Assembly (NCBI GenBank): GCA_963832165.1
Contig: CAWHTE010000007.1
Span: 640,001-704,000 of the forward strand
Direction of reading: 5' to 3'
Length of the DNA stretch: 64,000 nt
From: an uncultured delta proteobacterium
Lineage (GTDB): Bacteria > Myxococcota_A > UBA9160 > SMWR01
Of the stretch, positions 1-30,958 are shown in pieces. Positions within the stretch are counted from its first letter, which is position 1; every line of letters begins with the position of its first letter. The translations under genes and the position numbers were made by a program. The notes under the pieces are model-generated. The model was given only the letters and a program-made list of their open reading frames with translations, searched no databases and had not been told where the DNA came from.

Positions 1-414
1 GCCGCGGTCTCGCGCGGCACGTGGTATCTCACCAAGGGCATCCTGCGCCGCTTCATGCTGCGCCGGAAGAGCGGCCGGATCATCAACATCTCGAGCGTGG
101 TCGGTCACACCGGCAATCCCGGCCAGATCCCGTACACGATGGTGAAGGCCGGCCTCGACGCGTTCGCGAAGAGCCTCGCGCAGGAGCTCGCGGGGCGAGA
201 CATCCTCGTGAACTCGGTGGCGCCCGGATTCATCGACACCGAGATGACCGACGAGCTCCCCGACGAATTGAAGGCGGCGATCCTCATGCGCATTCCGCAG
301 CAGCGCATGGGCAGGCCCGAAGAGGTCGCGGACGTGGTCGCGTTCCTGGCCACGCGCGGCAGCTACGTGAACGGCTGCGTGATCCACGTGAACGGCGGAA
401 TGTTCGGCGGCTGA
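1..414 (+). CDS. fabG: 3-oxoacyl-ACP reductase-like SDR, 5' truncated by window edge
   Basis: Open from base 1; GRIINISSVVG, YxxxK (YTMVK), VNSVAPGFIDTEMT, C-terminal VNGG. Confidence 0.85.
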   Translation, partial: AAVSRGTWYLTKGILRRFMLRRKSGRIINISSVVGHTGNPGQIPYTMVKAGLDAFAKSLAQELAGRDILVNSVAPGFIDTEMTDELPDELKAAILMRIPQQRMGRPEEVADVVAFLATRGSYVNGCVIHVNGGMFGG

Positions 415-24428: not shown

Positions 24429-25859
24429 CTACTCTCGCCTTTCCCCCACCATCCCGTCGAGTCGCGCGCACAACGCCTCCACCTGGTAGCGCAGCGGTGC
24501 GCTCTCCAGGATCCGGCGCTCCACCTTGCGCACCGCGTTCGCCGCCGCGGAGTGGTCGCGGCCGAGCGCCGCGCCGATCTCCGACAGCGAAGAGCCCGTG
24601 TAGCGGTGGCACAGAAACATCGCGAGCTGGCGCGGCAGAAGCACGTCGCGGCGCCGCGAGCGCGCGGCGAGCTCGTCGGCGCGCTGCTTGAAATAGGCCG
24701 CCACCGTCTCCACCACGTCGCGGATCGCGAGCGGGTGCCGAAGACCCGGGATCGGCGCGAGCTTGCGCAGCGCGACCAGCGTGAGCTCGACGTCGATCGG
24801 GCGCTTGAGCAGCGACGCCGTCGCGACGAGCTGGATCAGCACGCTCTCGAGGTCGCGCACGCTGCCGCGCACCGATTCCACGATCATCTCGCGGCAACGG
24901 TCCGGCAGGCGAACGCCGCCGTCGGCCGCGCGCTGGCGCAGGATCTCTCGCCGCACGATCGCATCGGGAGCCTCGAGCTCGGCGACGAGTCCGGAGGAGA
25001 TCTTCGAGCGCAGCCGGGGGTCGAGCCCCTCGAGGTCGCGCGGCATGCGGTCGGCCGTGAGCACGACACGCGCCCCGACGTCGAGCAGGTGGCACAGCGT
25101 GTGGAAGAGCTCGAGCTGGGTCGCCTTTTTGCGCGCGTCGAGAAACTGCACGTCTTCGAGCACGAGCAGCCGGCATCCGTGGCGGAAGCGGCGCTTGAAC
25201 TCGTCGATGCGCCGCGACTGCAGCGAGCGCGTGAAGTCGTTCGTGAACGCCTCGGCCGAGGCGTAGATCGCGCGCGCTTCGCCGCACTGGCGCGCCTCGT
25301 TCACGATCGCGCGCGCGAGGTGGGTCTTGCCGAGACCCTGGGCGGCCGTGAGCACGAGCGGGTTCAGCGAGTGCTGGGTGCTGCGCGCGACCGCGAGCGA
25401 CGCCTCGCGCGCGAGCGCATTGCACGATCCGACCACGAAATTGTCGAATCGATACGGAAACTCGCGCTGCAGATCGGGCGCGGAGCACTGCCCGTTCCCG
25501 TTCACGGGCGGAGCCGCCGTGGGCTGGAGCCGCGGCACCGAGTTGGTCGGCGTGGGCGCCGGGTGTGCCTCGATCGGCGCACTTCGCAGCGGCGGCGCCA
25601 CCACGAGGTCCACGGCGACGGGCACGCCGGCCTCGGCTGCGGCGCAGCGCTCGATCTCGCTGAGAAAGCGCTCTCGTACGCGATCGCGGTGGAACGCGGT
25701 CGGGCAGCCCAGCGTCAGGCGATCGCCCGCTGCGCCGTCCTTCCGAGCATCGCCGCGCGGAACGAGCGGGCCGATCCACGCTTCCAGGGCGAACGGGGGC
25801 ATCTCGGCTCCGAGCCGGCGGAGGACGCCGTCCCAGAGCGTCGGGGGGGTGGTCTGCAT
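24429..25859 (-). CDS. dnaA: Divergent DnaA paralogue (domains I-IV present)
   Basis: YRFDNFVVGSCN, GLGKTHL, LEDVQF, QLELFH, SVRDLES, PRQLAMFL, GRDHS; no dnaN or canonical DnaA boxes nearby. Confidence 0.85.
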   Translation of the reverse strand: MQTTPPTLWDGVLRRLGAEMPPFALEAWIGPLVPRGDARKDGAAGDRLTLGCPTAFHRDRVRERFLSEIERCAAAEAGVPVAVDLVVAPPLRSAPIEAHPAPTPTNSVPRLQPTAAPPVNGNGQCSAPDLQREFPYRFDNFVVGSCNALAREASLAVARSTQHSLNPLVLTAAQGLGKTHLARAIVNEARQCGEARAIYASAEAFTNDFTRSLQSRRIDEFKRRFRHGCRLLVLEDVQFLDARKKATQLELFHTLCHLLDVGARVVLTADRMPRDLEGLDPRLRSKISSGLVAELEAPDAIVRREILRQRAADGGVRLPDRCREMIVESVRGSVRDLESVLIQLVATASLLKRPIDVELTLVALRKLAPIPGLRHPLAIRDVVETVAAYFKQRADELAARSRRRDVLLPRQLAMFLCHRYTGSSLSEIGAALGRDHSAAANAVRKVERRILESAPLRYQVEALCARLDGMVGERRE

Positions 25860-26219: not shown

Positions 26220-26885
26220 TCAGTGGAGGTGGTGGCGGCCCCCTCCACTGCTCTCGAGCTCGAGTCGCTGGAACGAGAGCGCGCTCGCGAGCCGTGCGTA
26301 GCGCGCGGGGATGTCGTCGGCCTCGATCAGCGCCTGCTTCTCCTCGGTCGGGAACGCGAACGCGTTCGAAACGGCGTTGACGAAGGTCTCGTCGTCGACG
26401 CCTCCGAACAATTCCGGGTCGAATGCGTGCGATCTGTCGGGTTGGGCGTGGCGGATCAGGATGCCGACGTCCACGGTGATCCCGGCGCGCAGACGCGCCA
26501 CGCGGGCGCGCTCCGTCTCCGGATACGAATCCTCGAGCCGGACCACCCGCGCGACGCGATACAGGCGCGATTCGGTGCGCGGCTCCTCGGCGACGATCCG
26601 CACGCGATGCTCGCCGAGCAGCACGATGTTGTAGCGGCCGTCCGGCATGCGGTTCGATTCGGTGATCAGGCCCGAACACGCGATCGGGTAGACCGGCGGG
26701 TCGGCCGGCATCTCGTCGACGTGCTCGGGGCGCACGACCGCCATCGCGATCCGTCGGTCGGCCTGGAGCACGTCGCGGGCGAGCTGCCGGTAGCGGGGCT
26801 CGAACAGATGCAGCGGCGTCTTCACGCGCGGGAACAGCACCACGTTCGAAAGCGGGAAGATCGGCAGCAGCTCGGTCTCGCTCAC
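26220..26885 (-). CDS. Stand-alone LON substrate-binding-domain protein
   Basis: LPIFPL...VLFP...LHLFEPRYR, DGRYNI, EKQALIE; no ATPase or protease domain. Confidence 0.85.
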   Translation of the reverse strand: MSETELLPIFPLSNVVLFPRVKTPLHLFEPRYRQLARDVLQADRRIAMAVVRPEHVDEMPADPPVYPIACSGLITESNRMPDGRYNIVLLGEHRVRIVAEEPRTESRLYRVARVVRLEDSYPETERARVARLRAGITVDVGILIRHAQPDRSHAFDPELFGGVDDETFVNAVSNAFAFPTEEKQALIEADDIPARYARLASALSFQRLELESSGGGRHHLH

Positions 26886-26921
26886 GGCGTCACGTTACCA
26901 AAGGGGGTGCGTTCCGATCGG

Positions 26922-26950
26922 TTGACGGCTCCCGGCTGCATTGGAAGACT
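26922..26950 (+). promoter_or_regulatory. Sigma70-like promoter of the WLM protease gene
   Basis: TTGACG-N17-AAGACT, 8 nt before an in-frame TTG at 26959. Confidence 0.5.
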
Positions 26951-27362
26951 CGCCGCACTTGGATCGAGCCACCGCGCGACGACTGATCGAGCGCCTCAAC
27001 CTCGACGCCGAGCGCATCTCGCGCCGATTCGGTCTGCAGTACCGCTCGATCACCGCGGAGCGGGTCGGTGTGCGCAGCCGCTACGGGGTCTGCTACGCGG
27101 ACGGCGCGATCAAGATCCGCCTGCGACACGCGACCACGGGCCGTCCACTCAAGTACTCGAGCCTCGTGAACACGCTCTGCCACGAGCTGGCGCACTTGCG
27201 GCACTTCAACCACGGGCCGCGCTTCAAGGCCTTCTACTTCGAGATCCTCGACTACGCGCGGGCGCTGGGCATCTATCGCCCCGGACGTCCGCAGGCCCCG
27301 CCCCGGTGGTATTACCGGACCCGCCTCCGCAGCGGGCCGTGCAGCTCAGCCTGTTCGGCTAG
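26941..27362 (+). CDS. WLM/Wss1-like zinc metalloprotease; probable 1-bp deletion near 27320, corrected C-terminus QLSLFG*
   Basis: IKIRLR...TLCHELAHLRHFNHGPRF (HExxH-x5-H); -1 frame reads PPPQRAVQLSLFG-TAG(27360); start may be 26959. Confidence 0.75.
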
Positions 27363-27385
27363 CGAGGCGCGCCCCGCCTGCCTCG

Positions 27386-27586
27386 TCAGGGAGTGAGCTG
27401 ATCGTACTCTTCGAGGGTGTTCGGACCCTCGTCCACCCGCGCGATCACCTGGTCGCACGCGATCGCCTTGTCGAGGATCTCCCGCACCAGGCCCTCCACG
27501 CTCAGCTCGTCGTACTCGGCCATCGCGTCTTCGAGCGCGGTGTCGGACACCGTGATCTCGAGAGCGACCTTGATCGTGACTGACAT
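27386..27586 (-). CDS. Small acidic hypothetical protein (66 aa)
   Basis: GAGGG RBS, GC3-rich codons, MSVTIKVALEITVSD... Confidence 0.65.
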   Translation of the reverse strand: MSVTIKVALEITVSDTALEDAMAEYDELSVEGLVREILDKAIACDQVIARVDEGPNTLEEYDQLTP

Positions 27587-28536: not shown

Positions 28537-30331
<1,795 letters not shown>

Positions 30332-30388
30332 GCTGCGAGTCCGAACGTACCAGACCAGCGCATCGTCTGCGTTCGCTAATGTCGCGCC

Positions 30389-30958
30389 GTGCGACGGTCC
30401 CGCTGGCTCTGGCTCGTGTGTTGCGCGCTCGCGGTCGCCGCGTGCGATCGCAACCTCGAGCCGTTCGACCCGAACGAGAAGCCGCGCGAGCCGGACCTCT
30501 CGAAGATCTTCCCCGAAGGCGCTGAGAGCGCCGAGCCCGCGCAGCCCGCGCTCCCGCCCGCGCCGGGTGAGCAGCGCGGCGCTCCGCCGATGCCGACCGA
30601 GGCCGCGGCCGGGGGCTCGCAGGCACCCGTCACGGGCACCGTCGCGCTCGCGCCCGAGTTCGAGGGGCGGACCCCTGCGAACGCGGTGCTGTTCATCATC
30701 GCGCGGCGCGGGGCGGGGCCGCCGCTCGCGGTGAAGCGCGTCGCGGATCCGCGCTTCCCGCACGAGTTCTCGATCGGCCCCGATGACCGCATGATCCAGG
30801 CGATGCCGTTCGCGGGCCCGATCGAGCTCAGCGCGCGGATCGACGGCGATGGCAACGCGACGAGCCGCTCGCCCGGCGACGTGACGGGCAACGCGCAGGG
30901 TGCGCCCGTCGAGCCCGGCGCCACGGGCGTGGTGATCCTGCTCGATACGCCGCTGTAG
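30389..30958 (+). CDS. Lipoprotein with CcmI/CycH C-terminal-like Ig domain
   Basis: Lipobox VAAC; LFIIAR...PPLAVKR...FPHEF...[10 protein letters not shown]. Confidence 0.7.

Follow-up and report, generated by a model that had tools for sequence, protein, structure and literature searches.

The question raised by this locus is whether a bacterium keeps a protease of the Wss1 type on a leash at its own sliding clamp. The gene concerned lies in a stretch of 64,000 nucleotides from an uncultured delta proteobacterium (assembly GCA_963832165.1, contig CAWHTE010000007.1, positions 640,001 to 704,000 of the forward strand), which as a whole is called the window here, and an earlier note on this DNA had read its product as a clamp-tethered, Wss1-like protease ending in QLSLF, a binding motif for the beta clamp (DnaN). 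Every part of this reading that lends itself to computation held, with fold, motif and docking in agreement. We are highly confident of the architecture, a WLM-fold zinc protease with a clamp motif: the gene product of about 134-140 amino acids combines a minimal, strongly basic zinc metalloprotease domain of the WLM (Wss1-like) type with a disordered linker and a C-terminal QL[S/D]LF(G) peptide. With considerably more reserve, we also favor the proposal that this clamp-tethered Wss1-type protease frees DNA of proteins stuck to it where replication or repair takes place. Both parts are of known kinds; what is new is that a Wss1-type protease is joined to a bacterial clamp motif.

As it stands in the window, the open reading frame (ORF) runs on the plus strand from a TTG start at 26941 to 27396 and encodes 151 amino acids, with HELAH at 27181-27195 and the codon of a third histidine at 27211-27213. 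Its product displays the WLM pattern I.IRLR...TLCHELAHxxxxxH...F that had been noticed before, and S. pombe Wss1 aligns with it in the same manner. The 3' end is also covered by a second frame, which gives ...PPPQRAVQLSLFG up to a stop codon at 27360-27362 and encodes QLSLF at 27342-27356. The unshifted stop (27394-27396) runs 11 bp into a convergent ORF ending at 27386, and the shifted stop leaves a gap, in agreement with the earlier statement that the shifted frame avoids this overlap. The parts of the gene are given below, with conservation taken from the alignments A1 (with the nearest intact homologues), A2 (30 diverse members) and A4, and with P0005, the closest intact homologue and first row of A2, as the subject of the AlphaFold2 model.

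26959 to 27285, plus strand: WLM (Wss1-like) zinc metalloprotease domain of about 109 amino acids, from Pfam, the AlphaFold2 model of P0005, and fold and profile matches
27181 to 27213, plus strand: zinc-binding and catalytic motif HELAHLRHFNH (HExxHx5H), its H, E, H and third H invariant in A2 and A4
27286 to 27341, plus strand: disordered linker rich in Pro, Ala and Arg, belonging to the second frame beyond about 27297
27296 to 27299, plus strand: probable site of a one-base deletion, a run of four C against five C in near-identical relatives, from contigs of relatives and A1
27342 to 27362, plus strand: clamp-binding motif QLSLF (27342-27356), encoded in the second frame and followed by Gly and a stop codon (27360-27362)

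Linker length, taken over 76 loci, has a median of 31.5 amino acids (range 14-77); the median net charge of the linker is +3, and 77% of its residues are P, A, G, S, R, T or Q. In A2 it spans 20-250 residues and reveals no conserved column. The domain carries a median net charge of +10 across loci, which fits DNA binding. A subclade with long linkers, comprising 11 of 270 family proteins (P0131, P0135, P0138, P0142, P0145, P0146, P0151, P0154, P0160, P0178, and P0182), displays two extra conserved short motifs in its linker regions, namely R[ND]GV[PA][VI]F and, about 10-25 residues later, (L)PW[EQ], which may be docking sites for other partners.

The conservation of the C-terminal motif was assessed with a query that does not contain it, the unshifted ORF, searched against a collection of 5.8 billion proteins, and the best 119 of 2351 matches at E <= 1e-3 were examined. 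These homologues are mostly 126-162 amino acids long and align to about 64-98% of the query, the coverage being partial because the out-of-frame end of the query does not match. Whether homologues end in QLxLF had been named as a check in the earlier note, and 114 of the 119 carry such an end (Q[LIVM]x[LIVM][FLWY], counted over the final 15 residues), with the strict form QL[SDAEG]LF present in the final 12 residues of 91. The same motif-free query yielded 320 clusters at E <= 1e-3 among 1.84 billion representatives at 50% identity; in the best 150, QLxLF was found within the last 15 residues of 55 and further in in eight, many of the others being fragments or showing variants such as QMSLF and QLQLL. 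The weakest representatives (P0251-P0271, about 100-118 amino acids) have neither linker nor motif.

The 80 loci from species genomes show a similar picture, with QLxLF no more than 12 residues from the end in 61, 13-30 residues from the end in 11, and QLxLL in four, the rest consisting of three loci cut by a contig end and one with a single substitution in the motif. Counting QLxLL, the motif is thus present in 76 of the 77 complete loci, and QLxLF was found in 7/7 loci from another order of the class. In A2, the Q and both L columns are invariant and F is kept in at least 90% of the members, and in A4 all four are invariant. The motif is conserved among orthologues, but the linker around it is not.

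Within the source genome, an ending of the form Q[LM]x[LM]F in the last 11 residues is displayed by only 3 of 27,994 stop-to-stop ORFs of at least 100 amino acids, namely the second frame of the protease gene, a Y-family DNA polymerase ending in ...RQLDLFPPD (IMS 95.7 bits, IMS_C 79.5 bits), and one ORF of 136 amino acids. The latter (G000:C11:51468-51875, plus strand; locus L117) has a GC content at third codon positions (GC3) of 0.95, ends in ...PQMSMFHW, a looser likeness to the clamp motif, and has no match in Pfam. The motif is far beyond chance, is rare in the source genome, and is used there by a textbook clamp client. According to the available text of a 2024 review of the beta clamp (PMC11139829), the clamp motifs of highest affinity follow QLxLF, and QLSLF, lying one residue from the end in a tail that is disordered in the model, agrees with the clamp-client definition Q-phi-x-[L/M]-[F/L] given in that text.

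Concerning the protease domain, a comparison of WLM with YgjP and SprT had been proposed in the earlier note, and in Pfam both the YgjP-like model (PF01863; 39.6 bits, cut-off 26; profile positions 103-194 of 207) and the WLM model (PF08325; 34.8 bits, cut-off 26; only positions 63-110 of 190) are passed, while the SprT-like model (PF10263; 21 bits, cut-off 25.6; positions 29-92 of 108) fails. A profile search through the whole genome revealed the protease gene as the sole match to either the WLM (33.7 bits) or the YgjP-like (38 bits) model. Of 14 well-known control genomes, none has a protein over the WLM cut-off and nine have one over the YgjP-like cut-off; since the protease gene passes both, it is more Wss1-like than ordinary YgjP proteins. 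The sequence HELAHLRHFNHGPRF is present, with HExxH, the third zinc-binding His six residues on and then a conserved Phe, and the invariant H-E-H-H of HExxHx5H aligns with the H-E-H-H of S. pombe Wss1. In the profile alignment the latter reads HIELRLR...TLIHELTHNVHGEH..F, the same pattern as in the protease. Comparing the A2 profile with sequences from the Protein Data Bank (PDB) resulted in E-values of 4.4e-08 for S. pombe Wss1 (5jig_A), 4.5e-03 for S. cerevisiae Wss1, and 0.44 for SPRTN.

The AlphaFold2 model, built on A2, has a mean predicted local distance difference test score (pLDDT) of 89, with block means of 91-98 over residues 1-110 and of 57-66 in the tail, which is without secondary structure. 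The five best Foldseek matches are all Wss1 (E 1.7e-04 to 8.5e-04), followed by minigluzincins. A second fold search (VIA), independent of Foldseek and covering 48,161 chains, again placed Wss1 first (5xbn_A, Z 15.3, root mean square deviation 1.8 A over 104 aligned residues; 5ln5_A, Z 12.9), the other matches being YbeY (Z 9.0), selecase (Z 8.2), and SPRTN (6mdx_A, Z 7.8, 3.5 A over 93 residues), the last of which lies at the general level of zincins and far below Wss1. A Wss1 (WLM)-type fold of the domain is thereby supported, as far as the model goes, with Wss1 clearly first by sequence profile and by fold.

To the alternative that the protein is a YgjP-type metal-dependent hydrolase acting on a small molecule, such as a nucleotide pyrophosphatase, and not a protease, with or without clamp binding, we give very little credence. 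It draws on the YgjP-like model being the top Pfam match, on relatives labelled 'predicted metal-dependent hydrolase' or 'M48 family metallopeptidase', and on the fact that YgjP-like proteins are common, as the nine control genomes show; a look-up in a protein atlas returned WLM/YgjP-like clusters from Myxococcota, with weak leads elsewhere. However, the N-terminal half of the YgjP-like profile is absent and the protein has no room for it, the WLM cut-off is passed as in none of the control genomes, Wss1 reaches Z-scores of 15.3 and 12.9 compared with 9.0 for the next solved fold and is found by sequence profile too (E 4.4e-08), and a conserved clamp tether would be hard to explain for a nucleotide hydrolase.

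The next question is whether the tail of this Wss1-type protein would reach the clamp, for which a prediction of the AlphaFold type with DnaN had been suggested earlier. The pair was taken from another genome, since the DnaN of the source genome is frame-broken, and consisted of DnaN from locus L084 and protease residues 101-145 from locus L054, both from the complete chromosome of one genome in the same taxonomic order as the source genome, each supplied as an alignment. The tail was predicted to lie in the canonical cleft, with interface scores (ipSAE) of 0.71, 0.68, and 0.70 (median 0.70) compared with 0.01 for the best of three controls (0.00-0.01); the mark used for docking is reached by 116/157 solved complexes and by 2/215 mismatched pairs. 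At least 67% of the contacts are shared between runs, and in the confident ones the last eight residues of the tail face DnaN residues 177, 179-182, 250, 255, 326, 328, 352, 354, 368, and 370-374. We take these to be the canonical peptide cleft between domains II and III, and residues 177, 179-182, 250, 255, 328, and 370-373 are invariant in 31 DnaN sequences. Taken as a prediction, this makes it quite probable that the tail binds DnaN.

It would also be conceivable, and we deem it very improbable, that the conserved QLxLF binds a partner other than DnaN, be it a protease adaptor or some other protein of the replisome or of repair, or that it is a degradation signal, its likeness to clamp motifs being a coincidence. 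DnaN binding is after all a prediction, made by structure predictors with clamp-peptide complexes in their training data, and the additional linker motifs of the subclade (11/270 proteins) hint that the tail may recruit more than one partner. Against such a coincidence, the motif equals the consensus of highest affinity for the clamp and closes a disordered tail, a placement shared with Pol II, Pol IV, and Pol III alpha, both according to the accessible part of PMC11139829. Moreover, the only protein of a known family with the same ending in the source genome is the Y-family polymerase, and the predicted contacts fall on conserved cleft residues while the controls stay at 0.00-0.01.

Under the proposal of a clamp-tethered protease, the tail peptide would dock in the hydrophobic cleft between domains II and III of the DNA-loaded beta clamp, and this docking would leash the protease flexibly at sites of replication and repair, where it would cut proteins held on DNA by covalent bonds or very tight binding in the path of the replisome. 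It would thus be a bacterial functional counterpart of Wss1 and of SPRTN, which is recruited by PCNA. Proteolysis, clamp binding, dependence on DNA and the identity of the substrate are what we infer from the computed fold, catalytic residues, family-wide motif conservation, motif rarity and cleft docking, and in the case of DNA-protein crosslinks (DPCs) as the substrate it is the analogy to Wss1 and SPRTN that suggests them.

The copy of the gene in the window carries a frame break between domain and motif. The earlier note had restored the frame by adding a C to the run at 27320-27322, which does join the two frames, but the break probably lies elsewhere. Comparing contigs of four soil runs with 26850-27450 of the window revealed one extra C behind 27295 in record 4 of run X1 (27192-27443, 11 other differences) and likewise in record 14 of run X3 (27220-27418, six other differences), both from close relatives, from two different studies and with a depth of about 2 each. 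Because of these two contigs, the one-base deficit is placed in the C-run 27296-27299, where it probably sits, and alignment A1 also fits a break in this run. Contigs of run X2 are identical to the window only over 26850-27042, short of the break, and in a genome of the same genus (G222) the linker is too diverged to place the indel by DNA alignment. Codon bias, which had been cited in favor of the shifted tail, does not discriminate between the frames, with GC3 values of 0.85 for the unshifted, 0.86 for the shifted, and 0.52 for the third frame.

The break is most likely an assembly error, a reading based on similar breaks in other genes of the same assembly, which has 11 contigs and is 89% complete. 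The essential dnaN (G000:C7, about 384045-385136; 1469-2691 of locus L001, minus strand) is frame-broken near its 3' end, its main frame ending in ...SPSDDATRSRS and the canonical ...AVVMPMRL and stop being found in another frame, although in 31/31 full-length aligned DnaN sequences of relatives the canonical end is in frame; an indel introduced by the assembly is the probable cause. As also mentioned in the earlier note, thiC (28537-30500 of the window, minus strand) is affected as well, being split over two frames, one of which ends in ...AAAYHGAS. Since homologues and the loci of species genomes keep the C-terminal motif, the break is regarded as a defect of the copy in the window. A genuine frameshift, which would make the gene a real pseudogene in this strain with a tail-less protease or none at all, appears decidedly improbable to us. 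The window as given does lack the extra base, and no public run holding reads of the source genome across the site was found (best word share 0.18). On the other side stand the single breaks in dnaN and thiC, the location of the break inside a homopolymer, the motif frame downstream of it, which is still open and intact, and a catalytic domain 96% identical to that of the nearest intact homologue.

The distribution and surroundings of the protease gene are also of interest. The family was detected in 72/401 sampled Myxococcota genomes, including 11/11 of the family to which the window belongs, nearly all families within its order (7/8, 23/25, 11/11, and 2/2 among them), and 14/14 genomes of one sampled family outside this order in the same class. 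All named loci come from metagenome-assembled genomes, labelled as Myxococcota or Deltaproteobacteria, with some other labels. In the window, the protease gene is accompanied by the following genes.

24429 to 25859, minus strand: dnaA, from the ORF list, with a match to the Hda/DnaA model at C7:664789-665469
26220 to 26885, minus strand: stand-alone Lon N-terminal (substrate-binding) domain protein of 221 amino acids, here LonN (Pfam LON_substr_bdg, E 7.5e-31)
27386 to 27586, minus strand: small acidic protein of 66 amino acids, convergent with the protease gene, consensus ...LEDALAEYDELTVEGL..DKAIA...EGPNTLEEYD

The LonN gene immediately precedes dnaA, with which it shares the strand, and is divergent from the protease gene. 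Among 80 loci, the same order and orientation were found for dnaA in 72 (within 4 kb), for LonN in 70, for the small acidic gene in 74 (by tblastn), for a DUF4149 gene in 51, and for thiC in 56. In the seven loci of the other order, dnaA, LonN, protease gene and small gene are kept in 7/7 with DnaA being only 38-43% identical, and the outer flanks are lost (DUF4149 1/7, thiC 0/7). Eight loci show no match to LonN (L012, L020, L021, L024, L030, L044, L045, and L074); in these, dnaA nevertheless keeps its place upstream of the protease gene, on the other strand. The genes dnaA and dnaN are not neighbors in this lineage; a single contig carries both, with about 256 kb between them, and the GC skew across the window has no clear turning point near dnaA.

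The small, very acidic protein is highly conserved, is encoded by a clean ORF with an ATG start in 80/87 loci, displays invariant residues E19, D26, E27, D39, K40, G54, P55, and N56, and matches no Pfam family. Its AlphaFold2 model (pLDDT 85.8) has its best match in the PDB with HP0222 (Z 2.2, 35 residues, 6-40), presumably a ribbon-helix-helix protein, which at this score is a hint only. It could be a partner or a regulator of the basic protease.

The divergent region between the LonN gene and the protease gene spans 55 bp and includes an element that bears on the start of translation.

26922 to 26950, plus strand: conserved promoter-like element consisting of TTGACG (26922-26927), a 17-nt spacer and AAGACT (26945-26950), recognized by its conservation in relatives

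TTGAC is kept in 58 of 70 aligned intergenic regions, and the full pattern TTGACn-16..18-nAnAnT-3..14-start codon was found in 37 of them, the start codon being ATG in 30, GTG in four, and TTG in three. The TTG at 26941, taken as the start in the earlier note, falls inside this element between TTGACG and the AAGACT-like hexamer, whereas the in-frame TTG at 26959, 18 nt (six residues) downstream, aligns with the conserved ATG of most relatives and is probably the true start. A scanner for consensus promoters reported neither a sigma-70-like site nor a terminator within 26800-27500 at its thresholds, its silence on the promoter being due to the second hexamer, since AAGACT matches TATAAT at only three of six positions. 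The conserved element and the likely start codon at 26959 are separated by only 8 nt, which suggests that the mRNA of the protease is leaderless or nearly so.

The linkage to dnaA gives rise to another explanation, in which the tethered protease is regulatory and acts on an initiation or replisome protein, DnaA first, and not on crosslinks, as a proteolytic analogue of the inactivation of DnaA mediated by Hda. Clamps loaded after initiation would then recruit the protease, which would cut DnaA or a factor close to the clamp, and the LonN protein could be an adaptor and the acidic protein a regulator. We consider this explanation unlikely, though worth keeping in sight, and its elaborated form slightly more so, in which the four-gene block is an initiation-control module whose clamp-recruited protease destroys DnaA or an origin-bound protein, LonN being the adaptor and the acidic protein the brake. 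It gains from the order and orientation of the core in most of the 80 loci (dnaA 72, LonN 70, small gene 74), from the core being kept 7/7 in the other order in spite of DnaA identities of 38-43% and vanished flanks, from the position of dnaA in the eight loci without LonN, and from the 55-bp divergent control region that the protease gene shares with the LonN-dnaA unit; yet gene order within one class may persist by descent alone, and the small acidic gene, being convergent with the protease gene, is not co-transcribed with it. A search of the source genome for Hda returned DnaA with 78.9 bits and next 22.5 bits, at a cut-off of 194.8, and hence no Hda-like protein besides DnaA, in a test that is weak, as the model passes in 1/14 control genomes and the genome is 89% complete. 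Hda itself is a clamp-tethered regulator of DnaA according to the available text of PMC5397184.

Returning to the removal of proteins stuck on DNA by a clamp-tethered protease, several results weigh against it. The YgjP-like score in Pfam is slightly above that of WLM (39.6 vs 34.8 bits), and none of the structure matches listed is titled a YgjP-like protein, so that the fold does not argue against a YgjP-type activity other than proteolysis. Clamp-peptide complexes have been solved many times, and the docking result may reflect likeness to known structures, with the partner's own fold being uncertain (pLDDT 48-50). The two contigs that place the frame break have a depth of only about 2, and none of the public runs sampled for the source genome contains it, which leaves a small probability for a true pseudogene. 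No SOS-type regulatory site was identified, and nothing ties the protein specifically to DNA-protein crosslinks. The class-wide dnaA block with its decaying outer flanks hints at a part in controlling initiation and not in repair. Finally, the family was found in 0/323 genomes of all other Myxococcota families sampled and is not a general bacterial solution.

The earlier note knew of no characterised bacterial equivalent, and none emerged from a full-text search of the literature, which, at the level of abstracts and open papers, returned neither a bacterial DPC protease of such a kind nor a bacterial protein of the WLM, YgjP or SprT type described as carrying a clamp-binding motif. In the available text of the beta-clamp review PMC11139829, the words 'protease' and 'peptidase' have zero occurrences. 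Crosslink proteases of the Wss1/SPRTN type are central to eukaryotic genome maintenance, and in the accessible part of a 2021 review of DPC proteases (PMC7782752) bacteria appear only under nuclease-dependent repair. If our proposal is true, a new class of enzyme would be added to the toolbelt of the clamp. With about 135 residues and two components, the system is minimal and could serve to test by what means a promiscuous protease is kept to places of replication, and the linkage to dnaA adds a second testable idea, the control of initiation. As the family was found in one class of uncultured Myxococcota only, heterologous expression is needed.

Compared with known systems, the YgjP-like/DUF45 proteins (PF01863; E. 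coli YgjP), cited in the earlier note as UTP pyrophosphatases, share the HExxHx5H core with the protease and give the best Pfam score, but only the C-terminal half of their profile is matched, and the protease also passes the WLM cut-off, as in 0/14 controls. Wss1, the DNA-dependent WLM metalloprotease of yeast (5xbn, 5jig, 5ln5), is the best match by fold and profile, being likewise a small domain with the core I.(I/L)RLR...TL.HEL.Hx5H..F. Wss1 is directed by SUMO- and Cdc48-binding modules. It differs in being eukaryotic and in showing an identity of only about 19-23% to the protease, whose sole appendage is a disordered linker with a bacterial clamp peptide.

On the side of the tail, Pol IV (DinB), Pol II, and Pol III alpha carry QLxLF at the very end of a disordered tail, according to the available text of PMC11139829, and the same cleft is predicted for the protease, the difference being that their cargo is a polymerase and not a protease. 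Hda is also small, is anchored to the loaded clamp through a short motif at its terminus and acts on DnaA, as described in the accessible part of PMC5397184, and the protease gene is linked to dnaA. In contrast, Hda is an AAA+ homologue of DnaA that stimulates ATP hydrolysis and is not a protease.

SPRTN (Spartan) of metazoa (6mdx) combines a zincin protease with a disordered region bearing a short sliding-clamp motif, as the protease does. Its contact with PCNA is made through a PIP box. The available texts describe it as a ubiquitin-PCNA interacting factor (PMC3510514) that acts in replication-coupled DPC proteolysis (PMC5128727). Unlike the protease of the window, it belongs to another protease family (SprT-like, 21 bits against a cut-off of 25.6; Z 7.8; E 0.44) and uses ubiquitin- and p97-binding modules. 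Since the clamp is DnaN and not PCNA, the clamp tethering of a DNA-dependent protease would, if our proposal is true, have arisen independently in bacteria and eukaryotes.

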